NCBI GenBank assembly: GCA_963660735.1
Contig: CAVLAV010000001.1
Coordinates: 1-32,789 of the forward strand
Reading direction: 5' to 3'
Source: a bacterium
Lineage (GTDB): Bacteria; Bacillota; Clostridia; Christensenellales; Borkfalkiaceae
Length of the DNA: 32,789 nt
Every line of letters starts with the position of its first letter. Within the stretch, counting starts at the first letter, position 1. The notes beneath the pieces are model-generated. The model was not told the origin of the DNA. It did not search any database and saw only the letters and a program-made list of their open reading frames with translations. The position numbers were made by a program, and so were the translations under genes. Of the stretch, positions 19,086-32,789 are shown in pieces.

Positions 19086-20135
19086 ATGAGTATTATTTTC
19101 TCTAAACTTGCGGGCGCGAACGATCCGTATATCGGAAAGTTTGAACACCCGATTAAAGCACTTATCGAAAACGAGAGCAACGACCTCGAAAAAAAGAAAA
19201 CCCTGCTTGACGTTCTCTACAACGTCGAAAAATCGAAACGTTACGCCGAAACCGTAATGGGACAAGGCGATTTCGGTTTATTCCAGAGCGCGAAAGAGGG
19301 TGCGGGTGCGGAAAACGACGCGCCTGAGGGTGGTTTCAAAAAGACGATTGAGCATATTCCCTTTATGAAAGAGTTTACTATCACAAAGGAAATGCTCGAC
19401 GACGCGAAATTCGGACTTCCCGCAGAGTTCAGAAACAGACCGAAAGGGTTTATCCGTTCGTATTACAGAACGCGCGTTAAACTCGGCGCGTGGGCTTTGG
19501 CGCACGGCACGAGCGCAAGCGGCACGTTTAACAAGGCTACCGTCGATTTAACCGTGGGCGACGGCTTGCCGCTTTTCCACAACGCACATAAATACGCCGC
19601 AACGAAATTCAAAGGCAAAACGCAGTCGAATTTCTATTACGACGATAAACTTTGCGGCGATACCGCGAAACTTGAAAAATCTCTCGGCGTTCTCGCGAAC
19701 AAAATGCGTAACTTTAAGGACGAAAACGGCGAAACGCTCGGCTATACGCCCGATATTATCGTGTTACCGTCCAACCGCCCCGAACTCGAAATCGACGTTA
19801 AAAAGGTTATCGGTTCGGAAAGAACGACTGGTACGGACTACAACGATATCAATACGCAGTACGGCAACTGGACTATCGTAATTCTCGACGGCTGGGAAAC
19901 CGACGACGACAGATTTATGCTTATGTCCTCCGAGGCAAACGAGAATTTGCTCGGCAATATGTTCTACAACCGCGTTGCGCTCGATATTAAGAGCGAGGTT
20001 GATATTCATACCCGTAACCTTATTTACAACGGTTACTGCCGTATGGGTATAGGTTTCTCGAACTGGAAACACATTTTGCTTGCCGTCAAATCTTCGTCCG
20101 CAGTTACCAACGCCACCGATTTGGCACTTGCTTAA
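19086..20135 (+). CDS. Major capsid protein
   Basis: A 349-aa ORF with a GGAGG RBS, downstream of the scaffold gene and followed by a structured, terminator-like region. The translation has the general look of Mu gpT / lambda E-type capsid proteins (N-terminal ...DPYIGKFE..., C-terminal ...YNGYCRMGIGFSNW...). Confidence 0.7.
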   Translation: MSIIFSKLAGANDPYIGKFEHPIKALIENESNDLEKKKTLLDVLYNVEKSKRYAETVMGQGDFGLFQSAKEGAGAENDAPEGGFKKTIEHIPFMKEFTITKEMLDDAKFGLPAEFRNRPKGFIRSYYRTRVKLGAWALAHGTSASGTFNKATVDLTVGDGLPLFHNAHKYAATKFKGKTQSNFYYDDKLCGDTAKLEKSLGVLANKMRNFKDENGETLGYTPDIIVLPSNRPELEIDVKKVIGSERTTGTDYNDINTQYGNWTIVILDGWETDDDRFMLMSSEANENLLGNMFYNRVALDIKSEVDIHTRNLIYNGYCRMGIGFSNWKHILLAVKSSSAVTNATDLALA

Positions 20136-20142
20136 CCTAAAC

Positions 20143-20230
20143 TCGCAGTCGCCCGCGCGTTCCCCGCTTTGCAACACTGCGATTTAGAATTTCAGCGGGG
20201 CTTGTAGTTATGAGATACGAGCCCCGTCTG
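20143..20230 (+). terminator. Structured intergenic RNA or leaky terminator after the capsid gene
   Basis: Three possible stems:
- TCGCAGT (20143-20149) with ACTGCGA (20176-20182)
- CCCCGCT (20162-20168) with AGCGGGG (20194-20200)
- CGGGGCT (20196-20202) with AGCCCCG (20220-20226)
The last two compete for the same G-run. The region is followed by AAAATATTTT. Confidence 0.45.
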
Positions 20231-20256
20231 AAAATATTTTAACAGGAGGTTTTGTA

Positions 20257-21174
20257 ATGACCATAAAAGAACTCTACGATTCCGTAGCGCAGTTAGGCTT
20301 TGAAACCTCGCTCGAAGATAACGACAGATTTTACTTAGCCGTAAACAGGGCTGTTATTCAGATAAATCGGTTAAGACCGAAAACAAAAGTATACGAATTA
20401 AGCCATTTCCCGATAGAAAATTTACTCGGAAATGACAAGGGCGAGCCCGTCAGTAATGACGACGAGGCTCTTATTTTCGTTGCCGACGGCGCAAAGGCTT
20501 ATTATTTTGAGTGCAACGGTAACGGAACTATGATTATCGAAAAACACATTGCCGACGACGACTGGGCTGTAATCGGCTCGGAAACTCTCACGAGTGCCGA
20601 CGGCAGTTTTACCGAATACAGAGGGTTTATCAAAGACGGCAGCGATTTTTATACTGGAACAGTGCGCCTGCGCTTTGCTGGCGATTACGTTTATCAGGTA
20701 AAAAACGTTGCAATGTATGATAAATTACGCTCTGATAAAGCAGCGGATATTCCCGCATTTTCGGAATACGTTGCTTATGATTTTACTAGCCTCGCAAACG
20801 ATTTCGCCTCGTTTGTGCGTCCTCCGATAGCGGACGCGGGGCAGAGTAAGGGTTTTTTGCTCGATTCAGATTATTTTGTTTCTGGCGACAAAACGCTCCT
20901 TATTCCCGCGTCTGTTAGAGGCTTATATCGCGTTAGGTATAACAAAAAAATCGCGTCAATCAATCAAGACGAAGATACGGAAACGACGAATATCGACCTT
21001 GACGACGATTTGTGCGCGATTTTACCTAACCTTGTGGCGGCTTATATCTGGGTTGACGACGAGCCGACCAAGGCAGAGTATTATCTCTCGCTTTACCGCG
21101 AACAGGCAGCCGAAATTTATGCTACCGCAAAGAAATTCGAGCCTATCGTTTACAGGAACAGAAACGGGTGGTAA
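20257..21174 (+). CDS. Hypothetical virion structural protein (head-tail adaptor position)
   Basis: A 305-aa ORF with a GGAGG RBS, the first gene after the capsid gene. No motif recognised. Confidence 0.35.
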   Translation: MTIKELYDSVAQLGFETSLEDNDRFYLAVNRAVIQINRLRPKTKVYELSHFPIENLLGNDKGEPVSNDDEALIFVADGAKAYYFECNGNGTMIIEKHIADDDWAVIGSETLTSADGSFTEYRGFIKDGSDFYTGTVRLRFAGDYVYQVKNVAMYDKLRSDKAADIPAFSEYVAYDFTSLANDFASFVRPPIADAGQSKGFLLDSDYFVSGDKTLLIPASVRGLYRVRYNKKIASINQDEDTETTNIDLDDDLCAILPNLVAAYIWVDDEPTKAEYYLSLYREQAAEIYATAKKFEPIVYRNRNGW

Positions 21175-21177
21175 GGT

Positions 21178-23826
21178 ATGGCGTATTCATTTAAGACAAA
21201 GGAAAATCTCAGCAAAGGAACGACTGAATATAACAGATATTACGGCAGTTTCAGGGGCGTTGACTTTTCCAACGACCATACGCAAGTAAACTCGTCGCGG
21301 CTTGCTTATGCCGTAAATATGTACAAAGATTATCGCAGTAAGCAAGGCGTTGCGCTGGAAACCGTCGCAGGCTTTCGTAAACGCTGTTATTTTGCGAAAA
21401 AACCGACAATCGACGCAAACGGAAAAGCGACTGGCTTATTTACGGAAACCAGCGAAAAAGAAATTTACGGCATTATCTATTTTCAGCATAAATCGGACGA
21501 TACAGTAAAAACAAGCGTGCTCGTTCACAGCGGCAAACGCCTTTATTTGTGGCGTAATTATCCGCTCTCAATGAATGTGCCGACGGCGGGCAAAATAACG
21601 CTCTCAGAGCCTGTTTCAGAGGTTGAAACAAACGGTACGACGATTAAGACTTTCAACGTTACATTGCCGTTTTCTTGCGAGGCTGTAATCGGTCTGCATA
21701 GGCAAACGGGCGAGGATATTACGCTCAATATTTCAAAATATACAGCGTCAAGCAAGACGCTGGAAATCGTAAGTTCCGAACTGCTTGCAGAGGAAATGCT
21801 CGATATTTCGTATTATGAGGGCGTATCAAAGGATAGCAACTTGCTTTTTTCGTCTATGAACGAACATAAGAGTCAGCACTTTGTTTTTAATAACAGGCTG
21901 TATATTCTGGACGGGAAAAATTATCTCGTATACGACGGCAGCAGTATTTCGCAGGTAAAAAATTCCGCGTATATTCCGACAACGTATATCGGCATAATTC
22001 CCGCTGGCGCAAATGCGGATATAGGCACAGAGTACGAACAGCGCAATCTTCTTACGCCGAAATTTAAGCATACGTTTGTTGCCGACGGAACGACGAAAGA
22101 ATTTTTAATGAACGAGAACAATCTCGATTCCGTCGTTTCCGTTAAAGTTTACGGTGCGACAAAAACGGTAGGTACCGATTATACGGTAGACCTTACAAAC
22201 GGCAAAATAACCTTTACCGCCGCTCCCGCAAAACCCGAAAATTCGGGCTACGAACAAGGTTATGCGGGCATTGAAATAACAGCGTCAAAAGTATATACGT
22301 CAATAGACGGCGTAACCGATAATATGTCGGATATTTCGGAATTGATTTCAAAGTGTACGCTTTGTACGACTTATGACGGCAGGGTTTTCTGCACGGGAAA
22401 CCCAGATTATCCGAATTACGTTTTTTATTGCGGCAGGAACAGTACGGGCTACGCAGATCCGTCTTATTTCTGCATTCTCAATTATATGCAGGACGGTGTG
22501 GGGTTATCGCCCATAACGGGCATTATGTGCGTTTCTGATACGCTTATGGTGCTTAAAGCGGACACACAACAGGATAGTTCGATTTATTTTCATACTGCGA
22601 CAGACAGCAGTCAAAATTTACTGCCGCGCATTTATCCGTCCGTTCAGGGCTTATCTGGACTGGGTTGCGTCGGGGCGTGCTGCAACTTCCTTGACGATCC
22701 GATTTTTATTTCTCGGCTCGGCGTTGAGGGCGTTTCACAGTTAAAAATATCGTCCGAAAGAGCGAACGAGCATAGGTCTTACCTTATCGACGCAAAACTC
22801 GTTAATTCCGAACTGAAAAATTGCGTACTTGAAGAGTGGGGCGGCTATTTGTGTCTTTTGGTAGACGGAAACATTTTTCTTGCCGACAGCAGACAAAAAT
22901 ACGCCGACGAAACAGGCGCATTGCAATACGAGTGGTATTACTTAGAGGGTATCGGCGTTTATGACGGACAATATAAAGAGTATCACTATTCAAGCATTTT
23001 GCCGACCGAGTTCAAAGATATAAAGATAACCCACGAGGATATAGAGTACGATATAGAACTTGCACAGGCGGTATATTATTCCGATACGGACGAAACGAAA
23101 GATTTGCGCGGTACGGTTGCAAATTCGGCAGACGACAGCGGAAACGAAAGCCGTCAGGTATATTCGCAGTTTGTAACGGCGAATTTCAACGGTATGGAAA
23201 TACAGGTAAATATATTCTATACCATTCACGAAGTCGTTGATATTTTCACGAATACGGTTAAAGAAAGGCATTTGTATTTATGCGAAGAATACGGCAATTA
23301 CACGGGCGGCGTTTTCAAAAAAGCAACTACGCTTAGTTCGATAGACGATAATTTGTTCTTTGGCTGCGTAAACGGCGTTGTATGTTCTTTTAATTTCGAC
23401 CAAAGGAACGACGACGGCGAATTGCCGCCGAAAACATACAATTTCGACGAAAGAACGATTTTCAGCGGGTGCGCCACGCTTATGGATAACTGTCAAATTC
23501 CGCACCTTACAAAAACCACGATAAAGCGTTCTACGGTTATAAAAACAAAGTCTTTCCGCAATTCTGCCGCAAAGATTAAAGTCAGAACAAACAAAACTCC
23601 GTATAAGCAAATAGCGCGTATCAACAGTGCGTTGTTTTCGTTTGAAGATATGGACTTTTCCGATTTCTCTTTCAATACTACCGAGCAAAGCCTTTTTGCG
23701 GTAAAAGAAAAAGAGAAACAATGGGTTGAAAAGCAGTATTTTATTTATTCCGACGAGTATCTGAAACCGTTTGCGCTCTATTACGTTTCGTTCAGATACA
23801 GAGTGGCTGGACGATACAAAGAATAA
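21178..23826 (+). CDS. Large virion structural protein (putative tail or nozzle component)
   Basis: An 882-aa ORF tightly packed (3-nt gap) after the previous gene and lying before the tail fibre gene. It is beta-rich. Function inferred from position only. Confidence 0.4.
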   Translation: MAYSFKTKENLSKGTTEYNRYYGSFRGVDFSNDHTQVNSSRLAYAVNMYKDYRSKQGVALETVAGFRKRCYFAKKPTIDANGKATGLFTETSEKEIYGIIYFQHKSDDTVKTSVLVHSGKRLYLWRNYPLSMNVPTAGKITLSEPVSEVETNGTTIKTFNVTLPFSCEAVIGLHRQTGEDITLNISKYTASSKTLEIVSSELLAEEMLDISYYEGVSKDSNLLFSSMNEHKSQHFVFNNRLYILDGKNYLVYDGSSISQVKNSAYIPTTYIGIIPAGANADIGTEYEQRNLLTPKFKHTFVADGTTKEFLMNENNLDSVVSVKVYGATKTVGTDYTVDLTNGKITFTAAPAKPENSGYEQGYAGIEITASKVYTSIDGVTDNMSDISELISKCTLCTTYDGRVFCTGNPDYPNYVFYCGRNSTGYADPSYFCILNYMQDGVGLSPITGIMCVSDTLMVLKADTQQDSSIYFHTATDSSQNLLPRIYPSVQGLSGLGCVGACCNFLDDPIFISRLGVEGVSQLKISSERANEHRSYLIDAKLVNSELKNCVLEEWGGYLCLLVDGNIFLADSRQKYADETGALQYEWYYLEGIGVYDGQYKEYHYSSILPTEFKDIKITHEDIEYDIELAQAVYYSDTDETKDLRGTVANSADDSGNESRQVYSQFVTANFNGMEIQVNIFYTIHEVVDIFTNTVKERHLYLCEEYGNYTGGVFKKATTLSSIDDNLFFGCVNGVVCSFNFDQRNDDGELPPKTYNFDERTIFSGCATLMDNCQIPHLTKTTIKRSTVIKTKSFRNSAAKIKVRTNKTPYKQIARINSALFSFEDMDFSDFSFNTTEQSLFAVKEKEKQWVEKQYFIYSDEYLKPFALYYVSFRYRVAGRYKE

Positions 23827-23839
23827 GCGAGGTAACAAT

Positions 23840-25480
23840 ATGAGCGAAACAAAAACTTTACAAAAAATAACCGCTACGCAGATTACGAAAAACGGCGTTC
23901 AGGCGTTAGCAACGCGTCCGAACAATTCTTCGCAATACGGACAAGGCGGGTTATCCCCGACGGAATTAAAACTGTGGTTCGATAAACTTGCCACGTTTCT
24001 GGCTGGTAAAATCAATGAAATTCAAGACGCAATCTGCGGCGAGGACGCAGAAAGTTATATCCGCGTTGTTCTCGACGATTACGGCGTAAAAACACTGAAA
24101 GACCTTACCGAGGCGTTCATAAGCGGCGATTTTGCAAATAAAATTCTTAAACTTTATCCCACTGCGTCGGCAACGACGAAACAAACGCTGCAAGTGATTA
24201 TAAACAGTCTTGCCGCACAAATAATAAGTAACGATACGGATATTGCGACTCTTGAAAGCAAGAAACTCGATAAAGTAACTGCTACAAACACATATAAGCG
24301 GGCTTACATAATTATGCCCGACGGTTCGCAGGCTACCGTTCTTATTTCAGAAAGCCCTCTTGCTGGCGCAATTCCGCTCTATAACGCGAAAAATCAACTT
24401 TTTTGTGCAATTCCCACGGAGGCAAACGGCGCGACGAATAAGGGCTACACGGACACGCAGGACTTATTGCTCGGCTCGCAGATTGACCTTTCGATAGATA
24501 AATCTACCTACAAAATGAAAGCGGTACTAAAAAACTTTGAGGGTACTGTTTTAAGCGAAAGTAAGGAAATCGACTTACCGCTCGAACAAATGATTATTAA
24601 GGGCAGTTATAATGCGGCGACGAAAAAACTCACTTTAACGCTCCGAAATAATCAAGAGGGGGTTGATAATAACTCTATTGAAATTGATATATCCGACCTT
24701 ATCGACGGGCTTGTTTCCGAAACCCGAACGATAAACGGTAAACCGCTTAGCGGTAACATTGTGCTTTCCGCTGCCGACGTGGGGGCTTACAAGAAAAGCG
24801 AAACGTATTCAATGAGCGAAATCGACCAAAAAGAAATTTACGCTCACGCGGCTTTTTGGGCAGAAGAATCGGAACACGCGCGAAACTACACAAAGGGCGG
24901 CGGTATCGACAGAAAATTCAGGCGATACGACGACCTGCTTGCCGCCGCTGGGTTTAGCGTCGATGTATCACTCGACACGTCGAATTATCAACTTACCATA
25001 TCCCTTAAAAACAGCGAGGGCAAAGTTTTAAGTTCGGGTATGGTTGATTTGCCTATCGAAAGCCTTATATCCAACGGCTCGTATAAGAACGGAATTTTAA
25101 CTCTTACGTTGCAAAGCGGCAACGTTATAAATATCGACGTTTCTTCGCTTATAAGCGGGCTCGTTGCGGATAGCAGGAAAATCAACGGCAAGCCGCTTAC
25201 TGCGGATATTGTACTTACTGCCGCCGACGTAGGGGCTGCCGCAAGCGGCGACGTTTACAAAAAAGCGGAAACCTACTCGAATACAGAAATCAATAAGAAA
25301 GTTTCCGACGCTTGTCAGGAATTGAGAGTAACGATAGAAAACGAACACCAGAGCGTCGGCTCGTCTTATTACTCGGTAGAGGCTGAAAAAGCCGCTGGCT
25401 ATACAAAGGGCGGCGAAATCGACAAAGCAATTAAATCAATCAAAGATAGGCTCACGAGCCTTGAAAATAACAATCAATAA
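23840..25480 (+). CDS. Tail fibre protein with an internal ~160-aa duplication
   Basis: ATG at 23840 after GAGG. The longer track ORF from 23771 overlaps the previous gene. It carries two copies of the fibre-type motif INGKPL(S/T)xxIVL(S/T)AADVGA and of the surrounding module. Confidence 0.65.
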   Translation: MSETKTLQKITATQITKNGVQALATRPNNSSQYGQGGLSPTELKLWFDKLATFLAGKINEIQDAICGEDAESYIRVVLDDYGVKTLKDLTEAFISGDFANKILKLYPTASATTKQTLQVIINSLAAQIISNDTDIATLESKKLDKVTATNTYKRAYIIMPDGSQATVLISESPLAGAIPLYNAKNQLFCAIPTEANGATNKGYTDTQDLLLGSQIDLSIDKSTYKMKAVLKNFEGTVLSESKEIDLPLEQMIIKGSYNAATKKLTLTLRNNQEGVDNNSIEIDISDLIDGLVSETRTINGKPLSGNIVLSAADVGAYKKSETYSMSEIDQKEIYAHAAFWAEESEHARNYTKGGGIDRKFRRYDDLLAAAGFSVDVSLDTSNYQLTISLKNSEGKVLSSGMVDLPIESLISNGSYKNGILTLTLQSGNVINIDVSSLISGLVADSRKINGKPLTADIVLTAADVGAAASGDVYKKAETYSNTEINKKVSDACQELRVTIENEHQSVGSSYYSVEAEKAAGYTKGGEIDKAIKSIKDRLTSLENNNQ

Positions 25481-25497
25481 TAACAGGAGGACAAACA

Positions 25498-26607
25498 ATG
25501 TTATTAGAAAAAACAAAAATCTATGGCGTTGACGGCGTGGGGAACTCTACGCCCACGCTTACCAGAACGGACGCTGCGGCGGGGCTTTCTTATGCTCGCG
25601 GCGTGAGTGAAATCACGAGCGACTTCGACAAGTGTTTCCCGTGGTGTGAAATGAAAGAGGTTGTGGACGAATACGGAAACGTGTTTATTCGCATACCGAA
25701 ATTTTATACCAAAATCACGAAAAACGACGACGGCTCTTACAAACACCAAATTTCTGGTTGCCGTTACGACGGGTTCGGAACTCTTTTTGTTGACGGAAAA
25801 GGCAATGAACTCGATTATATCCTTGTCGGAAAATACGAGGGTTCTGCGGTTGCGTCGGGTGATACAAATTACGACGCAAGCAATGCGAAAGTTAAGTCGA
25901 AATCGGGGCAGACCGTTCTCGTAAATATTACGAGAGGAACGTATAGAACGCGTTGCCGTAACGTGGGTAAGGGCTACCAGCAGTACGATTTTTTAATTGA
26001 CGCAATCATTAAAGAATTGTTTATGATTGAGTTCGCAACCACGAACTCGCAGAGCGTAATGCAAGGCTGGACGGACGGCTCGAATACCGCCGCGCTTGTT
26101 ACGGGGCATACCGACCTTGTAAAAACCGCGTCGGGCTCGTGGAATACTAACCACGTTGAGGACTGCGCGACTTGCAACACGGACGGTAAGCACGCCTGCA
26201 AGTATAGAGGTATCGAAAACCCGTTCGGCAATGTCTGGAAATGGTGCGACGGTATCAATTTTGACGTTGAAAAAATTTATGTCTGCGAAGATCCCGAATT
26301 TTATGCCGACGATAAACACGACGCGCCTTATACCTATATGGGCGACAGACTTATGTCTGAGGGTTATTTGAAAGAGGTTACGCCGTTTGCTAAAAACCCT
26401 CTCTTAGGTTACGCAACCGCGATAGGCGCGAGCAGTACGACGTATTATAGCGACTATTATTACGTCAACAACACGGGCACCGTGTTGTTCTGCGGCGGGT
26501 ACTGGTATAGCGGCGCGCTTGCGGGGCTCTGGGGCTGGAATGGGCGCTACACCGCGTCGTACGCGAACTCGGACATCGGCGGGCGTCTTTGTTATAAACC
26601 TCTTTGA
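25498..26607 (+). CDS. DGR target protein: C-type-lectin/FGE-like receptor-binding tail protein carrying the VR at its C-terminus
   Basis: AGGAGG RBS. Positioned right after the tail fibre gene. The last 43 aa (TVLFCGGYWYSGALAGLWGWNGRYTASYANSDIGGRLCYKPL) are encoded by the VR and have the CGG.W...IGxR pattern typical of CLec-fold DGR variable regions. Confidence 0.85.
   Translation: MLLEKTKIYGVDGVGNSTPTLTRTDAAAGLSYARGVSEITSDFDKCFPWCEMKEVVDEYGNVFIRIPKFYTKITKNDDGSYKHQISGCRYDGFGTLFVDGKGNELDYILVGKYEGSAVASGDTNYDASNAKVKSKSGQTVLVNITRGTYRTRCRNVGKGYQQYDFLIDAIIKELFMIEFATTNSQSVMQGWTDGSNTAALVTGHTDLVKTASGSWNTNHVEDCATCNTDGKHACKYRGIENPFGNVWKWCDGINFDVEKIYVCEDPEFYADDKHDAPYTYMGDRLMSEGYLKEVTPFAKNPLLGYATAIGASSTTYYSDYYYVNNTGTVLFCGGYWYSGALAGLWGWNGRYTASYANSDIGGRLCYKPL
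26480..26593 (+). repeat. DGR variable region (VR)
   Basis: A gap-free 114-bp alignment to 26694-26807 (offset 214). 98 of 114 positions are identical, and all 16 differences fall at adenines of the other copy. Confidence 0.9.
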
Positions 26608-26616
26608 GGGGGCTAA

Positions 26617-26634
26617 CGGGGGAAACTTCCCCCG
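26617..26634 (+). promoter_or_regulatory. GC-rich hairpin downstream of the VR (DGR target-recognition hairpin; may double as a terminator)
   Basis: CGGGGGA aact TCCCCCG: a 7-bp stem with a 4-nt loop, 23 nt after the end of VR/TR homology and followed by an A/T-rich run. Confidence 0.6.
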
Positions 26635-26693
26635 AAAAAAGAAAAATTTTTCTCACAGTTATCTATAAAAATGGGGTTATAAACCGAACACAG

Positions 26694-26807
26694 CCGTGTT
26701 GAACTGCGGCGGGAACTGGAATAACGGCGCGAATGCGGGGCTCTGGAACTGGAATGGGAACAACACCGCGTCGAACGCGAACTCGAACATCGGCGGGCGA
26801 ATTTGTT
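26694..26807 (+). repeat. DGR template region (TR)
   Basis: The invariant, adenine-rich copy of the VR. It has 28 adenines, 24 of them in 12 AAY (Asn) codons when read in the VR frame. It is non-coding, located between the target gene and the RT. Confidence 0.9.
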
Positions 26808-26946
26808 GCAAAAGGAATAAAAACAGGGTTTATAATTCACAGACCACTTGGTCAGAAATAGCCGTAAAGAGTGTGGTTTAGTAAGTCGAAAGAATTTGAA
26901 ACACCATAAGGCAGCAACAAAGACTCTTTGAAAAATAAAGGACACA

Positions 26947-27990
26947 ATGAAACGAACAGGATATTTATTTGAAAAAATAGTGTCGAAAGATAACATTATT
27001 TTAGCCATACATAATGCGACGAAAAATAAAAAATCGAAGCGTGGAATTATTAAAGACGCTGCGGAAAACCCCGAACGTTATGCGGATAAAATACGAGAAA
27101 AACTAATCAGCGGAAATTACTATTTTGCCCCGCCGATATTAAAAACTCGGCGGGAGCATAAGAAAATCAGGCATATAAAAGTGCCGAAATTCTATCCAGA
27201 CCAGATTATACATTGGGCACTTATGCAAGTAATCGAGCCGATAATAAATCGCGGAATGGATAGATACTGCTGCGGTTCTGTCAAAAATCGCGGAACACTT
27301 GCGGCAAAGAGAGCAATCGAGCATTTCATTAAGAAAGATAAACGTATAAAATACGTTATGAAAGCGGATATACACCATTTCTTTGAATCGGTAGATATTG
27401 AGGTGTTAAAGCAAAAATTTCGCCGTGTAATTAAAGATAAAAAGGTATTGAAACTTATCGACGAAATACTCGATAACGGAGGTGCAGGCTTGCCGATAGG
27501 TTACTACACCTCGCAGGCATTCTCAAATTTTTACTTGCAACGTTTCGACCACGAAACGAAACAAGATTTGCGTATTAAGCATTATGCGCGATATGCGGAC
27601 GACATTGTGTTTCTGGACGCGAACAAAAGGAAATTGCATAAAGCAAAAATCGCGTTCGATAAAAGTTTGGGTAAAGAAAATTTGAAACTTAAACACGATT
27701 GGCAAATCTGGAAATTCGGCAGCCGACCTATTGATTTTGTCGGTTACAGATTTTACGGGAAATACACCGTTTTAAGAAAGAAAATGTTTTACTCACTAAC
27801 CCGCGCCGTCCGAAAAATAAAACGTTTCGGTGTGAGATTAAGGCAAGTAATGAGGTTTTTATCGTATATGGGCTGGGCGAAACGTATCAATTTCAAGAAG
27901 TATTACGTCGAAAATATAAAGCCCGTTATCACAAAAGGCAATGCGTGTAAATTTATGGCGCATAACGCAGCCGTATTGTCAGCGGCTTAA
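26947..27990 (+). CDS. DGR reverse transcriptase
   Basis: A 347-aa protein with the YADD catalytic motif (27592-27603, ...YARYADDIVFLD...). It has the DGR-diagnostic IGxxxSQ motif (IGYYTSQ, 27496-27516) and an N-terminus typical of these RTs (LFEKIVSKDNIILAIHNATKNKK). It lies 139 nt downstream of the TR. Confidence 0.9.
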   Translation: MKRTGYLFEKIVSKDNIILAIHNATKNKKSKRGIIKDAAENPERYADKIREKLISGNYYFAPPILKTRREHKKIRHIKVPKFYPDQIIHWALMQVIEPIINRGMDRYCCGSVKNRGTLAAKRAIEHFIKKDKRIKYVMKADIHHFFESVDIEVLKQKFRRVIKDKKVLKLIDEILDNGGAGLPIGYYTSQAFSNFYLQRFDHETKQDLRIKHYARYADDIVFLDANKRKLHKAKIAFDKSLGKENLKLKHDWQIWKFGSRPIDFVGYRFYGKYTVLRKKMFYSLTRAVRKIKRFGVRLRQVMRFLSYMGWAKRINFKKYYVENIKPVITKGNACKFMAHNAAVLSAA

Positions 27991-28013
27991 ATCTATTATG
28001 GAGGTAAATTAAA

Positions 28014-28205
28014 ATGGCAGCAAAACGTTTCAGTAAGCAAAAGTGGCTTGAAAAGGCGAACGCGCAAATCGCGCAGGGGTTTCTCTCGGAAAGAGAGCGC
28101 GACGACGCGCTTGAAATCTGGGTAAACGACCTTGACGGCAAAACTTACGAAGAAATAACCGCGAACGGAAACGAGTTCAGCGACGATTATTTCGTAATCA
28201 ATTAA
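28014..28205 (+). CDS. Small hypothetical protein, 63 aa
   Basis: GGAGG RBS 8 nt upstream. It lies 23 nt after the RT stop. The protein is acidic and helical. No family recognised. Confidence 0.5.
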   Translation: MAAKRFSKQKWLEKANAQIAQGFLSERERDDALEIWVNDLDGKTYEEITANGNEFSDDYFVIN

Positions 28206-28215
28206 GAGGCACGCT

Positions 28216-28674
28216 ATGAAAATGGAATACAAACTCATTGAATTTGTTAAAAAGGGCTTTATTTTAACAAGAGAGCCCGAAGTCGTTGCAGACGAACTTA
28301 TTATCACGTTTACAGGCGCGCCAGACGGGGCGACGGCAGTTTTTGAAAATGCGGGCTGTGATAGTCTTTATCGCGTGCTTGAAAAGGGAACGTGCAGCGT
28401 TCCTGCGGACTTTCTGGACAGCATTGTAAAATGTACCGTCGTTGTTCTAAACGGCAAGCCAGACGCGCCGAAATACGCGTGTGAAAGTATCTATGTAAAA
28501 CGTATTGACGGCAAAGTAATTTGCTGCCCGAACGGCGTAGACACGCCGCTGCAAATAATTGCTGTTCTCTCGGAAATTCAGGACATAAAAAACGACATTG
28601 CCCACCTGAACAACGAACAGTCAAAAATTGTGAAAAAACTCGATAGGCTTATCGAGGGTTACGACTTTGAATAA
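28216..28674 (+). CDS. Hypothetical protein, 152 aa, with a C-terminal coiled coil
   Basis: AAGAGG RBS. The N-terminal part is beta-rich and the C-terminus is helical (IQDIKNDIAHLNNEQSKIVKKLDRLIEG). Possibly fibre-associated, based on position. Confidence 0.45.
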   Translation: MKMEYKLIEFVKKGFILTREPEVVADELIITFTGAPDGATAVFENAGCDSLYRVLEKGTCSVPADFLDSIVKCTVVVLNGKPDAPKYACESIYVKRIDGKVICCPNGVDTPLQIIAVLSEIQDIKNDIAHLNNEQSKIVKKLDRLIEGYDFE

Positions 28675-28686
28675 CGGAGGTAATCT

Positions 28687-29316
28687 ATGAAAATCAGAAC
28701 TAAAAATCGCATTTATATCATTCTTTTACTTGCGGTTGTGCTTTTCTTTTGCGTGTGCTTTTTTTGCTCGGTTTCCGCGAATAAGGCTTATGCCGCCGAA
28801 ACGCAAACCGCAACGGAAAGTGCCGCCTTAGAACAAGCAGACGAACAACCGACGCAAGATAATACTTTTTTCGGGCAAATCTTTGCGTGGTGCAAGGAAA
28901 ACATTGTACCGCTACTAAGCGCAACCAATTTAGGTACGATATTTGCCGTTATTGTCAGTCTGAAAAAAGAAATTAAAGACAACAAACGGCACAAATCGGA
29001 TATTCAGGCAGAAACGGCGGCGAATACCGAAAGCAACGCGGAAGTGATAAAGGCGGCAAATACTCTAATTGAAAAATACAACGACTTTGAGATTTATGTA
29101 AAAGAACTTACGAAAACAGAACTTGAACGCAGTCCGCAGTTTCAGGAAATGATTACATACAGCAAGGCTGTACTGGATATTCTTTCAGCCGTTTATGCAA
29201 ACAACAAAAATATTCCGCAAGCGATTAAAGACCTTGTGCAATTAAAGTATGTCGGAGCGTTGAAAGACGTAACAAGCGTTGAAGATACGGAGGCAAGCGG
29301 CGACGCGGAGGTGTGA
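28687..29316 (+). CDS. Secreted or membrane protein, 209 aa
   Basis: GGAGG RBS. The N-terminus looks like a signal or anchor sequence (IYIILLLAVVLFFCVCFFCSVSANKAYA). There is a second hydrophobic helix (LGTIFAVIVSL) followed by a helical tail. Confidence 0.5.
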   Translation: MKIRTKNRIYIILLLAVVLFFCVCFFCSVSANKAYAAETQTATESAALEQADEQPTQDNTFFGQIFAWCKENIVPLLSATNLGTIFAVIVSLKKEIKDNKRHKSDIQAETAANTESNAEVIKAANTLIEKYNDFEIYVKELTKTELERSPQFQEMITYSKAVLDILSAVYANNKNIPQAIKDLVQLKYVGALKDVTSVEDTEASGDAEV

Positions 29317-29317
29317 T

Positions 29318-29734
29318 ATGAAAAATAGCACGAAAGGCAAAATAATTCGCTATTCAAGCGTTATCGTACTTGACGCTGGCGCACCGCTGGCGGCTACCTG
29401 CGCTTATTTCCCTATGTGGGTAAATAAAGGCTCAGGGGCTACCGTATCGGGTGTGTTTGTCGTTCTTGCGCTGCTTTCGCTTATTCCGCTTTTGCTTGTT
29501 TTTAAGCAGAAAATAAAAACACCTGCCGTCTGGGTAATGTGGGTAATACTTTTCGTTGCGCTTTGGGGGCTGTATCAGATAATAGAACAAATGCTCGTTG
29601 TAGCCGCCGTAGGTGCGGCAAGCAACGCCGCAGGCGCAGGACTGTACAAATTGGGTGAGAGTATTGAAAAAAGCGACAATGCACCTGCTACGGGCTTTAT
29701 ATCGCCACCAGATAACGCGGGAGGTAATGGCTAA
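29318..29734 (+). CDS. Small multi-pass membrane protein (holin-like by size and topology)
   Basis: ATG at 29318 lies 6 nt after GGAGG and 1 nt after the upstream stop. The product is 138 aa with 3-4 hydrophobic helices. The track start at 29279 lies inside the previous gene. Confidence 0.4.
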   Translation: MKNSTKGKIIRYSSVIVLDAGAPLAATCAYFPMWVNKGSGATVSGVFVVLALLSLIPLLLVFKQKIKTPAVWVMWVILFVALWGLYQIIEQMLVVAAVGAASNAAGAGLYKLGESIEKSDNAPATGFISPPDNAGGNG

Positions 29735-30753
29735 TGCAGACGATTGAAAGAAAACAGCCTACGCCGCAAGAGCCGTTGGATAAACGCATAATCAAAGCGC
29801 GGAGCGCGAAAAAGACCGTGTTTCAGAAACTACTCAGGAACACGGGTATTTTCGTAAGCGTATTTATAATGTTCGTGGTAATCGTGGCATTTACCACCGA
29901 CCTGAAATTTTCCAGCCTTGCAGACTGGACGGCTCTCGGCTTAACGTTTTTTGTTTTACTGTTCTGCTCGTACAGTATGTATTTGAACTGTTCGGACAGT
30001 GGAACGAAAGCGGGAAAGGAATCCGAAACGTTCTTGAATACGCAGGACGATTACGACGGCGTGAAAAATAAAATCGCCGTAAACAAAATGCAGGGGCGAT
30101 TGCCTGAATTTTGCCAGCATTACGTCGAGGAAGAACTCGAACTGACGAGAGCGACCATTCTTGCCGACGTTGGTATCGAATATGCCGAATATAAGGAAAA
30201 TTATTTAGGTAAAGACAAGGAAACGCTCGACAAACTCGTAGCCGAAAACAAGTTATCTAAAATGAAAGCGGACACGATTTTAAGTGCGAATAAGGTAAAA
30301 CCCATAACGCTTACGCCAGATATGATTTTCAAGCGCGGCAGGGGAAATAATAAGCGCAGCCCGCTCGGAATGAACCCGCAGACAAAGAAAAAGTGGAATT
30401 TCGGTATTAAATTCGTAACGACGCTTATAACGTCGGTGCTTATGTCTATAATCGTTTGCGAGGTCATTATAACGCCGAACTGGGCGACGTTTGCGGCGTG
30501 TTTACTCAAACTGTTTGCCGTGTCAATGCAAGGCGTTTTCGGGTATAAAATGGGCTTTGAAAATATCGTCGTCGATACCGTCGAATATATGCGCGACCAG
30601 ATAGACCTTATGCAACATTTCCTCGAATACGTTAAACTTACGCCGATTGATTTTAAGGGCGGCGCGGGCAAAAATAACGAGCCGACGGAGCCTGAAAACG
30701 GGGAAGAAACGCCGTCTGAAAAGCCGCCAGAAACAGCAAATATCACGTTATAA
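29734..30753 (+). CDS. Membrane protein, 339 aa
   Basis: TAATG overlap with the previous gene (29732-29736). Two N-terminal TM helices and two C-terminal TM helices flank a charged helical middle. The C-terminal tail is P/E-rich. Confidence 0.5.
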   Translation: MQTIERKQPTPQEPLDKRIIKARSAKKTVFQKLLRNTGIFVSVFIMFVVIVAFTTDLKFSSLADWTALGLTFFVLLFCSYSMYLNCSDSGTKAGKESETFLNTQDDYDGVKNKIAVNKMQGRLPEFCQHYVEEELELTRATILADVGIEYAEYKENYLGKDKETLDKLVAENKLSKMKADTILSANKVKPITLTPDMIFKRGRGNNKRSPLGMNPQTKKKWNFGIKFVTTLITSVLMSIIVCEVIITPNWATFAACLLKLFAVSMQGVFGYKMGFENIVVDTVEYMRDQIDLMQHFLEYVKLTPIDFKGGAGKNNEPTEPENGEETPSEKPPETANITL

Positions 30754-30756
30754 AAT

Positions 30757-30789
30757 AAAAGGTACAGCCCGAAAAGTTGTACCTTTTTA
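30757..30789 (+). terminator. Intrinsic terminator ending the phage + strand operon
   Basis: AAAAGGTACA (30757-30766) pairs with TGTACCTTTT (30778-30787), with an 11-nt loop and a T-run. Confidence 0.75.
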
Positions 30790-30812
30790 TTGTGGATAAA
30801 CACGCTGAAAAA

Positions 30813-30948
30813 GAAAATTTTCAAACTTAAAAATTTTTTTCAAGTTTTTTCAGAAAATTTTTTGAAAAATAAAAATTGTTTCGGGGTGCGAAATTTTTTT
30901 TGATTTTTTGCAATGAAAATTTTACGAAACAAAGTGTGAAAATTTTAC
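30813..30948. repeat. GAAAATTTT motif array, including two perfect 12-mers
   Basis: GAAAATTTT occurs at 30813, 30853, 30915 and 30938. The last two are part of perfect TGAAAATTTTAC copies (30914-30925 and 30937-30948), 23 bp apart. An inverted copy (TTTCAAAAATTTTCT) lies at 32494-32508. Confidence 0.6.
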
Positions 30949-30988
30949 ACAATCGCAAAACCCCTTTTATTTCCTGACTTTTTCGGCT

Positions 30989-31081
30989 ATACAAACCTTA
31001 TACTTTTGTATTTCAAATGAAATAGAATTGCTTTGCTTTTGATATTCTTTTGTAATACAAAATTATACAAAACGATACAAA
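30989..31081. repeat. ATACAAA motif cluster (helically phased direct repeats plus palindromes)
   Basis: ATACAAA occurs at 30989, 31055, 31065 and 31075; the last three have an exact 10-bp period. An inverted TTTGTAT lies at 31005-31011. A palindrome TTTTGTA-a-TACAAAA lies at 31048-31062. Confidence 0.55.
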
Positions 31082-31244
31082 TATAAATCAAAATCAAAAG
31101 AAAATATAAATATAAATAAAATACACTAACGTGTATTGATCGGTAGATAGAATTACCCGCGCTCACGCGCGCGTAAAGCACAACGACGGGAGAATGATTG
31201 TTGTTTTTTTATTTTTTGAGATTTTTCTCTTAAAAGGAAACGAG

Positions 31245-31273
31245 TTGAAAAATGTTAGACAATGTGGTATAAT
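31245..31273 (+). promoter_or_regulatory. Near-consensus sigma70 promoter of the transposase gene
   Basis: TTGAAA (31245-31250), a 17-nt spacer, then TGgTATAAT with the -10 hexamer at 31268-31273. Confidence 0.7.
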
Positions 31274-31303
31274 AGCGGTACTTTCACGACGGAGGGAAAA
31301 TAT

Positions 31304-32329
31304 ATGAGGGGTATGAGATTTACCGCTAACCAGAAAAAGCACGCTCTCAAATTGTGGCTTGTAGACAAGAAAGATATTACGAAAGTTGCATATCTGACAA
31401 AATGCGACGAGCGTACTTTATGGCGGTGGAAAGCAAAATATGACGGAACGCTGGAAAGCCTGCAAAACGGCTCGACCGTTCCGCATACGCCGAGCCCTAA
31501 GGCTCATACCCAGATCGAAATCGAACACATAAAGAAAATATTTGAGGAAAGCCCCGATATAAGTTATGCGGAGGCTTACGGTGTTTTACGCAGCGAGTTC
31601 GCCTATTCAAGAACGTATTTCGGTTTTTGGCGTTTCGTTTCTAAAAACGGAATACGCCAGCCGAAAGAGATTGTGCAAAAATACGTTGAGCAGCCATACA
31701 ATACGCCTGAAATGTTCGGTATAAAAGTGCAAATGGACGTGAAAGTCGTTCCGAAAGAATGTAAAACGGGCGAATTTAAGCACGAGAAAGACTTTCAGTA
31801 CACAATGATTGACGAGGCTACCCGCGAAAGGTTTATTTATCCGTACAAAGAGCAGAGTACATTTTCGACCGTAGATTTTGTAAAAAGAGCGTTCGTATAT
31901 TTCGGGTATCTGCCTGCAATCGTTCAGACAGACAACGGAACAGAGTTTACCCCACCGAAGAACGCAAAAGAAACAACGATAAACGCAGTAGACCAGTTTT
32001 TAATGAAATACAACATTGTTCATAAACTTATAAAGCCTCGCACACCGCGCCATAACGGAAAAGTCGAACGCTCGCACAGAACCGACCAAGAATGTTTTTA
32101 TAATCACTTGCAATATTCCACGTTCGAGGAACTGAAAGAAAAAATGGCTGAATGGCTTAACCGATACAATAATCGACCGCACTCGTCGCTTAGAAATCGC
32201 GAGGGAAAGCGCGTCTGGCTTACGCCGTTGCAAAAGCGAGCCGAACTTATGGAAGATTATAAGAAAAACGGGTTTAAGGACGAAAACGATAAGGAAATTA
32301 AAATTCGTTTTCTTAAAAAGTCGGCATAA
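31304..32329 (+). CDS. DDE transposase, rve/IS481-like
   Basis: ATG at 31304 lies 7 nt after GGAGGG. There is an N-terminal HTH (ITKVAYLTKCDERTLWRWKAKY). The DDE triad context is VQMDVKVV, VQTDNGTEF and PRHNGKVERSHRT. Confidence 0.8.
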   Translation: MRGMRFTANQKKHALKLWLVDKKDITKVAYLTKCDERTLWRWKAKYDGTLESLQNGSTVPHTPSPKAHTQIEIEHIKKIFEESPDISYAEAYGVLRSEFAYSRTYFGFWRFVSKNGIRQPKEIVQKYVEQPYNTPEMFGIKVQMDVKVVPKECKTGEFKHEKDFQYTMIDEATRERFIYPYKEQSTFSTVDFVKRAFVYFGYLPAIVQTDNGTEFTPPKNAKETTINAVDQFLMKYNIVHKLIKPRTPRHNGKVERSHRTDQECFYNHLQYSTFEELKEKMAEWLNRYNNRPHSSLRNREGKRVWLTPLQKRAELMEDYKKNGFKDENDKEIKIRFLKKSA

Positions 32330-32354
32330 CCGTTGCAACTGAATATAGAAACGA

Positions 32355-32378
32355 ACTCCACGGCGGTGGAGTGTTTTG
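32355..32378 (+). terminator. Intrinsic terminator after the transposase gene
   Basis: ACTCCAC (32355-32361) pairs with GTGGAGT (32366-32372), with loop GGCG, followed by GTTTTG. Confidence 0.7.
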
Positions 32379-32401
32379 TCGTAGGCTTTTAAGCGATACG
32401 T

Positions 32402-32430
32402 TTGACTTTTTTCTGCGGAAAAGGTATAAT
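32402..32430 (+). promoter_or_regulatory. Consensus-like promoter with no adjacent ORF
   Basis: TTGACT (32402-32407), a 17-nt spacer, then TATAAT (32425-32430). The next start codon with an RBS is about 200 nt away. Confidence 0.55.
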
Positions 32431-32559
32431 GAAGAGGCTTAAAGGCTTTTTTTATTGCGTTTTTTCGGTGCTTTTGGCACTTTCTAAAAAAAATTTCAAA
32501 AATTTTCTAAAAACTACTGAAAAATGTTTGACAAATCACACGTTTTTTGACTTTTTCTC

Positions 32560-32588
32560 TTGACAAACGCGATTTTTTGTGTTAAAGT
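32560..32588 (+). promoter_or_regulatory. Candidate promoter of the antiporter gene
   Basis: TTGACA (32560-32565), a 17-nt spacer ending in TGt, then TAAAGT (32583-32588). A second TTGACAAA copy lies at 32528-32535. Confidence 0.5.
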
Positions 32589-32628
32589 ACGGCAATATAA
32601 CCGTTTTCGGACGGATACGGGGGTTGCC

Positions 32629-32789
32629 GTGGATAAGTTCTACGAAAAATTACAAAGCACGTCGCCCGTTTCGGTGGTGGTATTGTCTATAGCGATAATA
32701 CTCGCCGCAGGTTTTTTGGCAACGCGCATAACAAAACTTTTAAAACTGCCAAACGTAACGGCTTACGTGGTGGCGGGTATGGTGATAGG
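32629..32789 (+). CDS. Cation:proton antiporter (CPA2/Kef-like), N-terminal fragment running off the window
   Basis: GTG start after a GGGGG RBS. The translation VDKFYEKLQSTSPVSVVVLSIAIILAAGFLATRITKLLKLPNVTAYVVAGMVIG matches the typical first TM and the LP.V.GY..AG...GP opening of Na+/H+-exchanger family proteins. This is a host-type gene. Confidence 0.55.
   Translation, partial: MDKFYEKLQSTSPVSVVVLSIAIILAAGFLATRITKLLKLPNVTAYVVAGMVI

Follow-up and report, generated by a model that had tools for sequence, protein, structure and literature searches.

The window analyzed here is the whole 32,789-nucleotide stretch of bacterial DNA (contig CAVLAV010000001.1, positions 1 to 32,789), and it contains two near-identical repeats, at 26480-26593 and 26694-26807. 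We conclude with high confidence that they are the variable repeat (VR) and the template repeat (TR) of a functional diversity-generating retroelement (DGR), carried by a tailed phage or prophage of gut Clostridia with hosts of the Christensenellales type. An earlier note, made from the letters of the sequence, had read the pair as the trace of adenine-specific mutagenic homing, and this reading is now backed by the reverse transcriptase (RT), the fold of the target protein, related genomes and population data. The observations on which it is built are an adenine-only repeat pair, a flow of sequence from TR to VR, hypervariability of the VR, the type of RT, the protein fold, covariation in the RNA and the lack of a detectable Avd gene. 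The core of the element is made up of the following features.

25498-26607, + strand: DGR target gene, an open reading frame (ORF) for a 369-aa tail-fibre/receptor-binding protein, whose last ~40 codons contain the VR

26480-26585, + strand: VR proper, the part that would be overwritten by complementary DNA (cDNA); variable sites lie at 26488-26575, and it ends in the GC block TCGGCGGGCG (26576-26585)

26694-26807, + strand: TR, with the template of the mutagenized stretch at 26694-26799 and a tail at 26800-26807 that resembles IMH* (the template-side counterpart of the initiation of mutagenic homing sequence, IMH)

26947-27990, + strand: DGR-type RT of 347 aa (isoelectric point, pI, 10.2), starting 139 nt past the TR; it matches RVT_1 at 5.8e-16 and phrog_1423 at 2.9e-88

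The two repeats were realigned computationally. The alignment was gap-free at an offset of 214 and yielded 16 mismatches, at the same positions as had been claimed (TR 26702, 26703, 26714, 26720, 26724, 26732, 26733, 26747, 26748, 26759, 26760, 26762, 26774, 26786, 26800 and 26801). Every mismatch fell on an adenine of the TR, and no C, G or T differed within the 114 bp. The VR bases opposite these adenines were T in eight cases, G in five and C in three. Recounting gave a TR composition of 28 A, 40 G, 27 C and 19 T, in agreement with the number of adenines reported before, and the hypergeometric probability that 16 out of 16 mismatches fall on 28 adenines is 2.4e-12. In the reading frame of the VR, the TR contains 12 AAY codons (Y, pyrimidine). 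Ten of these are changed in the VR, where they encode F, Y, Y, S, L, G, R, Y, Y and D; the codon recount reproduced the earlier list. Besides these changes, only CGA to CGT (silent) and ATT to CTT (I to L) distinguish TR and VR. Homology is bounded on both sides by mismatches not involving a TR adenine (26479/26693 and 26594/26808), again as the earlier note had it. The pair is the sole long direct repeat within 20000-32789. When each A of the TR was replaced by N, the resulting pattern matched two sites in the window, the VR and the TR themselves, with 0 expected by chance; no second VR was found in the window by this search.

A repeat in the neighbouring tail-fibre gene served as a negative control for adenine bias. 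This 569-aa ORF (23771-25480) carries an internal duplication of ~110 nt at ~24672-24783 and 25122-25233 (coordinates converted from those of the syntenic relative L001), in which the motif INGKPL..IVL.AADVGA...KK.ETYS occurs twice. The mismatches between the control repeats were spread across all four bases.

All 16 adenine differences had been ascribed to mutagenesis. This held for 14 of them, and the two at the 3' end, A26800 and A26801, proved to be fixed differences between TR and VR both in the close relatives and in the wider family. The close-relative set comprises the window plus six relatives (seven genomes, ~92% identical overall), and in 7/7 of them A26800 and A26801 stand opposite T and C in the VR (26586 and 26587). 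A26800 is a silent third position (CGA/CGT), and seven independent T outcomes there would have a probability of ~1e-5 at the adenine-fate frequencies of the family. The A-to-C difference is fixed in ~40 nonredundant family loci, with L049 as the sole exception, where the TR also has C. Past the GC block TCGGCGGGCG, which occupies 26576-26585 in the VR and 26790-26799 in the TR, the TR continues with GAATTTGTTGC and the VR with GTCTTTGTTAT, and the differences between them are fixed. Over ~40 nonredundant loci the VR reads CG[CT] CTT TG[CT] here, encoding R-L-C, and the TR CG[ACT] ATT T... The residues GGRLC are invariant in alignments of 22 and of 49 proteins, and no variable adenine site was seen 3' of the GC block, either in the seven close relatives or family-wide. 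Because the differences at 26800/26801 are fixed and GGRLC is invariant, the 3' limit of information transfer would lie in the GC block. The two mismatches, lying 3' of this limit, thus appear to belong to an IMH/IMH*-type boundary and not to ongoing mutagenesis, which leaves 14 mutagenic mismatches instead of 16. Within the transferred stretch, 14 of the 26 A positions are changed and 80/80 non-A positions are identical between VR and TR (P = 9e-11 for 14 mismatches on 26 adenines). The 26 adenines of the template stretch 26694-26799 consist of 24 in the 12 AAY codons plus those of one ACC and one ATC codon. By analogy, the sequence past the GC block seems to behave like the IMH/IMH* pair of Bordetella.

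26576-26598, + strand: IMH-like 3' boundary of the VR, consisting of the GC block followed by TCTTTGTTATAAA and encoding the invariant R-L-C-Y-K; its IMH*-like counterpart in the TR is at 26790-26812

26617-26634, + strand: GC-rich inverted repeat CGGGGGA-AACT-TCCCCCG, seen in the DNA fold, 23 nt past the end of VR homology

The inverted repeat at 26617-26634 can form a hairpin with a 7-bp GC stem and a 4-nt AACT loop and is a candidate hairpin/cruciform element for target recognition. It is kept at the equivalent place across the family, with compensatory changes in the stem (AAAGGGAGA/TCTCCCTTT, AAGGGGGA/TCCCCCTT, GTGAGGGGG/CCCCCTCAC and ATGGGGGT/ACCCCCAT in relatives) and with loops of mostly 4 nt. 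The targets of phage DGRs were reported to carry GC stems of 7-10 bp with 4-nt GRNA loops, 4-34 bp from the VR (Guo et al. 2011); the geometry of the hairpin fits these ranges, but its loop does not. Repeats of this hairpin type were found downstream in 34% of DGRs only (Wu et al. 2018), so a GC hairpin is not a defining feature of a DGR. An intrinsic terminator was considered at this place and rejected: no T-run follows the stem, and none was called on either strand.

Related genomes provided an independent view of the element. The target protein has >1400 homologs; the 90%-identity cluster to which it belongs comprises 130 distinct members and the adjacent cluster 626, and the protein is on record from NCBI and Logan. 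L001, a syntenic relative with 91.6% identity over 15 kb, shows 18 VR/TR mismatches, all at TR adenines. The TR of L001 differs from that of the window at four non-adenine positions, and each of these differences is also present in L001's own VR. As the VR and TR of the window agree at 80/80 non-A positions despite 8.4% divergence of the genomes and four diverged TR positions, homing has taken place recently, after the split from L001. Among the seven close genomes, the TR is polymorphic at seven sites, six with a non-A substitution and one with A to G, and each polymorphism is mirrored in the cognate VR. At TR position 81, four genomes have G and all of their VRs have G; in the other three, whose TR has A, the VR reads T, T and C. 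Comparison of these genomes thus reveals a one-way transfer of sequence from TR to VR.

The hypervariability expected of the VR was borne out in other genomes at two levels. At the level of DNA, all 26 adenine sites upstream of the GC block vary among the seven VRs, and the TRs are otherwise conserved. At the level of protein, an alignment of 22 full-length sequences that are 92-94% identical has its 12 columns of highest entropy at exactly the 12 residues templated by AAY codons. Entropy is 2.89 bits at these sites, where 9.2 residue types occur on average, and 0.08 bits in the other columns; the next most variable column is the ATC-templated I360. In the wider family, self-comparison revealed an adenine-restricted VR/TR pair in 59/73 loci. 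When 45 nonredundant pairs were pooled, 656/1135 TR adenines (57.8%) and 13/3677 other bases (0.35%) differed. Taken together, the comparative evidence argues strongly for current activity of the element.

Three side observations concern the assemblies. Eight of the 72 IMG/VR contigs end within the VR, at residues ~320-363 (L007, L029, L030, L044, L056, L057, L058 and L059), which suggests that metagenome assemblies break at the hypervariable VR. In L036, the pair 4971-5074 and 5190-5293 has six non-A differences, and its VR resembles that expected from the TR of L033/L035; this locus may be a chimeric assembly or a product of recombination between co-occurring phages. L017, L025 and L052 show 1-2 non-A VR/TR differences each.

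The VR spans residues 328-366 of the 369-aa target. The protein matched phrog_5302 ('tail protein') at 9e-66, and sequence searches gave no match in Pfam, NCBIfam or the PDB. An AlphaFold2 model built with 49 homologs reached a pLDDT (predicted local distance difference test score) of 80.4 and a pTM (predicted template modelling score) of 0.85; its confidence was low for an insert at residues 194-234 and reduced in the VR. Foldseek placed the model with C-type-lectin-type proteins, as the earlier note had expected: the top solved matches were TaqVP (5vf4, E = 1.4e-8, probability 1.00), TvpA (2y3c), PvdO and Mtd. In BFVD, tail collar fibre proteins were matched with template modelling (TM) scores of up to 0.83. 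Upstream of the target lie genes for an 882-aa virion protein and for the 569-aa tail-fibre protein already mentioned. The 12 NNY codons provide a theoretical repertoire of ~1.3e14 protein variants, or ~2e15 if the ACC and ATC codons are included. Presumably, VR variation on an invariant C-type-lectin-type scaffold retargets the binding of host receptors.

The ORF of the RT is intact and contains the catalytic motifs, with IGYYTSQ at residue 184 (aligned to IGSLTSQ of 8ub7_A) and YADD at residue 216. Its best relative in the PDB is 8ub7_A, a 328-aa 'Reverse transcriptase' (6.5e-26), compared with 4e-14 for a group II intron RT. From the matching length, we take 8ub7 to be bRT, the enzyme of the Bordetella DGR, for which cryo-EM structures have been described. 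Against every NCBIfam model for group II, retron and DRT, the protein scored far under the curated threshold. By its PDB match and motifs, it appears to be an RT of the DGR clade.

The spacer between TR and RT contains a structured RNA, and two long-range helices connect the TR with its flanks.

26677-26685, + strand: 5' strand UUAUAAACC of a TR-enclosing RNA helix, pairing with 26827-26835 and ending 8 nt before the TR

26802-26809, + strand: TR-side strand UUUGUUGC of a candidate template:primer duplex, in covarying pairing with 26914-26921

26827-26835, + strand: 3' strand GGUUUAUAA of the TR-enclosing RNA helix, pairing with 26677-26685

26842-26921, + strand: RT-18 RNA (Rfam RF03021) in the 139-nt TR-RT spacer 26808-26946, scoring 51.4 bits against a gathering threshold of 41.3

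26914-26921, + strand: spacer-side strand GCAACAAA of the candidate template:primer duplex, in the 'unpaired' 3' tail of the Rfam RT-18 model

The match to RT-18 covers the full length of the model (1-84) and includes a hairpin P1, a helix with a UAGUA/GAAA internal loop of the sarcin-ricin type and a 3' tail. A published table that includes RT-10 as well rates this loop of RT-18 as a strong sarcin-ricin motif (PMC13085918). RT-18 is situated directly 3' of the TR in 17/18 diverse viral relatives and in 13/14 RT-bearing loci of bacterial genomes, with scores of 43.8-74.6 bits; the 14 genome loci exclude L122, which had no RT hit, and include L126 of Scopulibacillus, whose RT is unconfirmed. 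The RNA is missing from 4/4 RT-less relatives. RNAalifold supported both helices of RT-18, with compensatory changes in eight of nine predicted pairs. The motifs RT-1 to RT-19 were defined by their occurrence near RT genes; only RT-10, from the TR-RT spacer of Bordetella phage BPP-1, was tied to a DGR, and others were speculated to act in other DGRs (Weinberg et al. 2017). Two single loci bear on the range of RT-18. In L126 (4526-4601; Scopulibacillus darangshiensis DSM 19377, a cultured Bacillales genome), RT-18 scored 67.7 bits beside a 41%-identical homolog of the target, so DGRs with RT-18 appear not to be confined to Clostridia. In L068 (5246-5337), the spacer passed the gathering thresholds of both RT-17 (46.9 bits) and RT-18 (44.7 bits), which implies that the two families overlap or are related.

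The helix between the 3' end of the TR and the spacer recurs in other clades with different sequences, namely UUUUAAUC/GAUUAAAA, UUUAAUCUU/AAGAUUAAA (with a correlated 1-bp indel), CUUUUGU/ACAAAAG and CUUAUUU/AAAUAAG. Strands from the same locus paired over 7.8 bp on average, compared with 3.9 bp for cross-clade combinations and 4.3 bp for shuffled spacer windows; 2.5% of the shuffles reached 7 bp. In most loci the spacer strand ends in A, followed by G. RNAalifold did not predict this helix on the MAFFT alignment, in which the 1-nt indel is misplaced. The TR-enclosing helix likewise varies in sequence (GCGUGUGC/GCACACGC, GUGCGUGC/GCACGCAC, GUGUAUGC/GCAUACAC, UACGCGC/GCGCGUA, UAUGCAAUCC/GGAUUGCAUA and a 13-bp version in L068). 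Its own-locus mean was 7.3 bp, against 4.7 bp for shuffles, of which 1.1% reached at least 8 bp, and it is present unforced in the minimum free energy fold of 26660-26950.

On this basis, the element would work as follows. An RNA spanning ~26670-26946 would be transcribed from the + strand. Its TR would be held between the helices 26677-26685:26827-26835 and 26802-26809:26914-26921, the latter using the tail of the RT-18 scaffold. The 347-aa RT would then copy the TR into cDNA, misincorporating at template adenines. Synthesis would probably be self-primed from the spacer near A26921 and start at ~A26801; by analogy with Bordetella, A26801, directly 5' of the TR-side strand and shortly past the GC block, would be the first template base and A26921 the priming nucleotide. 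The cDNA would replace VR 26480-26585 in the tail-fibre gene, with the 3' limit of transfer in the GC block, and the IMH-like sequence together with the downstream GC hairpin would single out the VR, instead of the TR, for replacement. As a result, 12 NNY codons and two further codons would be diversified on a constant scaffold. We propose tentatively, with somewhat less than even confidence, that RT-18 is the functional spacer RNA of a DGR lineage independent of Avd. Its tail would give the primer strand and, together with the TR-enclosing helix, might reproduce the architecture of the Bordetella ribonucleoprotein without Avd, the RNA scaffold (including the sarcin-ricin loop) or the RT itself taking over the positioning role of Avd.

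Several points weigh against a functional DGR of this design. For this element, homing by way of cDNA is deduced from comparison and not from experiment, and the VR as assembled may merge several variants of the population into one consensus. No promoter was identified for the TR RNA. The loop AACT of the target-side hairpin deviates from the published GRNA consensus, and the loops of the family are mostly non-GRNA on the sense strand. Folding energies of single RNA or DNA sequences were no better than those of shuffles (z = -0.02 to -1.5); the support for the RNA structures is covariation, and the long-range helices were scored by purpose-made tests of own-locus against cross-locus or shuffled pairings instead of a column-based tool. 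The Bordetella element requires Avd, and no Avd (PF05635) was detected in 117 stop-to-stop ORFs of the window (75-260 aa, plus orf63, the short ORF behind the RT gene), among which the Pfam search at E <= 0.01 returned three weak matches, none related to Avd. It was also not detected in 28 ORFs within the 10 kb upstream of the portal gene in a relative with a 97%-identical portal protein, scans that together cover all but ~3.8 kb of the roughly 45-kb phage genome and none of the host genome. The region scanned in the relative encodes SSB, a Lin1244-like protein, YopX, PAPS reductase and terminase. Avd is absent in 26-29% of catalogued DGRs, the 29% being the accessory-free TR-RT architecture, and one RT lineage is wholly without avd (Wu et al. 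2018). Since this accessory-free class and this RT lineage are on record, the missing Avd corresponds to a known variant of DGR.

One further point, the position of the spacer strand in clade B, leads to another reading of the helix between the TR 3' end and the spacer: it could control translation of the RT or stability of the transcript instead of priming, in an element that would still be a DGR. In clade B, the strand GATTAAAAGG lies 5-9 nt from the start codon of the RT and overlaps the likely ribosome-binding region, and the consensus tail of RT-18 contains GGAG. In the clade of the window, the strand lies 25 nt upstream of the ATG and apart from the AAAGGA ribosome-binding site. The geometry, moreover, is that of the solved Bordetella duplex, as it starts 3-4 nt past the GC block, has a strand ending in A and is accompanied by a second, TR-enclosing helix. 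We therefore consider a control function in place of priming unlikely, if well worth keeping in mind. We regard as clearly more remote the idea of a fossil DGR, in which the adenine differences would record past homing by an element that is now inactive in this genome. Activity was indeed inferred by comparison instead of being measured, a few relatives show decay or mis-assembly (the six non-A differences of L036 and the 1-2 of L017, L025 and L052), and the existence of RT-less relatives demonstrates that the module can be lost. Against such inactivity stand the intact RT with its catalytic motifs, a VR that is different in every close relative and the full identity of the 80 non-A positions, although the closest relative differs by 8.4% genome-wide and at four TR positions.

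A reading without any reverse transcription would take the repeats for an ordinary duplication, kept similar by recombination and diversified by selection on Asn codons. Receptor-binding tips are often under diversifying selection, and the downstream copy lies inside a 61-aa ORF (26696-26881). Selection, however, would not restrict changes to first- and second-position adenines with 3677 non-A positions 99.65% identical, nor would it account for information that passes from TR to VR but not back. Directly downstream lie an RT and a spacer RNA of the DGR type, both of which co-occur with the repeat, and the control repeats of the tail-fibre gene mismatch on all four bases. We consider this explanation negligible in comparison with homing by a functional DGR. 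The 61-aa ORF itself is GTG-initiated, lies on the + strand, begins MLNCGGNWNNGANAGLWNWNGNN... and contains the TR; automated annotation could call it as a gene, which it almost certainly is not.

The element resembles the DGR of Bordetella phage BPP-1 (mtd-avd-TR-brt) in many respects. In both, the VR is located at the 3' end of a gene for a receptor-binding tail-fibre protein, TR and VR differ at adenines only, with the differences concentrated in AAY codons, and a GC-rich block at the 3' transfer boundary is followed by a nonidentical IMH/IMH*-type sequence. A GC hairpin with a 4-nt loop lies downstream of the VR in both, and a duplex between the TR 3' end and the spacer (TR117-129:Sp47-56 in Bordetella) is combined with a TR-enclosing duplex. 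Unlike BPP-1, the element has no detectable Avd gene, the spacer RNA is RT-18 and not RT-10, the hairpin loop is AACT and not GRNA, the inferred first template base is A and not G, and the target has no detectable sequence similarity to Mtd. The two spacer RNAs, RT-18 and the RT-10 of Bordetella (RF03022), are both listed with a sarcin-ricin-type internal loop, and each contributes a strand that pairs with the TR 3' end. They form separate Rfam families, and RT-10 works with Avd, which was not found here; RT-10 had no match in the window even at E <= 1. The predicted structure of the target has TaqVP (5vf4), TvpA (2y3c) and Mtd (1yu0-4) among its top fold matches, and the VR is C-terminal in all of these proteins, but sequence identity to them is 11-16%, and the TM-score to TaqVP over the full length is only 0.47.

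This type of DGR is well known. The element matches architecture A1 of Wu et al. 2018 (NAR 46:11): target, TR and RT share a strand, an avd, HRDC, MSL or CH1 gene is lacking, the target belongs to the C-type-lectin type and IMH/IMH* are predictable; the Avd-less RT 'Lineage 3' of that study is a possible relative. As far as we read that study, it mentions neither RT-18 nor the two covarying helices. What is new is modest: RT-18 is tied to the TR-RT spacer of a DGR, and covarying helices like the two that organize reverse transcription in the Avd-dependent Bordetella element occur in a lineage without detectable Avd. As a textbook DGR, the element adds one phage family to a very large catalogue. 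It also comes with a natural dataset, consisting of hundreds of public VR alleles on a near-constant scaffold, RT-less sister phages as controls and prophages in cultivable Pumilibacter. How Avd-less DGRs prime and bound the synthesis of cDNA can thereby be tested directly, as one small RNA and one protein of 347 aa would suffice.

Directly behind the RT gene lies a further conserved gene.

28014-28205, + strand: orf63, encoding a 63-aa acidic protein (pI 4.5) with the motif FSKxKWLxSANxQ...LSQREIDDAxEIWVNDLDGKT

In nearly all relatives orf63 directly follows the RT gene, and its products are 52-75% identical where the RTs are only 44-50% identical; no match was found in Pfam, PHROG or NCBIfam. 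A role of orf63 as a DGR accessory gene was ruled out, because in L081, L117, L123 and L109 the target is followed by orf63 with no TR, RT or RT-18. It is a syntenic neighbouring phage gene. In these DGR-less prophages (L081 3001-4332, L117 3001-4304, L123 3001-4290 and L109 3001-4455) the target homolog ends in ...RLCYKP[LI]. TR, RT-18 and RT thus act as one module, which some relatives have and others lack at this place, with a conserved phage gene on either side. Another ORF, orf152, is present only sporadically among the relatives.

Elsewhere, the window consists of a phage structural module, which encodes a major-head-like protein, a P22-like portal and the large subunit of the terminase, the last cut short by the start of the window. 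Between the portal region and the head genes, a 3513-aa polyvalent protein is encoded at 5657-16198 (+ strand) by a single ORF; its domains are MutS domain I, LPD1, an ART-PolyVal ADP-ribosyltransferase and LPD38. The MutS domain is of note only in view of reports of accessory proteins resembling MutS in some DGRs. Near the other end of the window, at 31262-32329 (+ strand), a 355-aa protein with an rve domain is closest to transposases of the IS481 family, with 158 bits where the cut-off is 224. Imperfect inverted repeats of 32 nt, ~1.7 kb apart (30831-30862 and 32498-32529), flank the gene, and L001 carries an rve-domain protein at the same place. This gene could be an insertion sequence that has inserted here or a DDE-type integrase of the phage.

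A megablast search with 24500-29500 gave no match in the phage collection. Prophage relatives were found mainly in metagenome-assembled genomes of Christensenellaceae, Christensenella and other Clostridia from human and animal guts, and also in the cultured Pumilibacter muris and P. intestinalis. One Christensenella assembly (CAJUGI010000002.1) contains two target-RT regions ~33 kb apart, L107 at 264334-271574 and L108 at 297777-305017, which could be two related prophages or a duplication.

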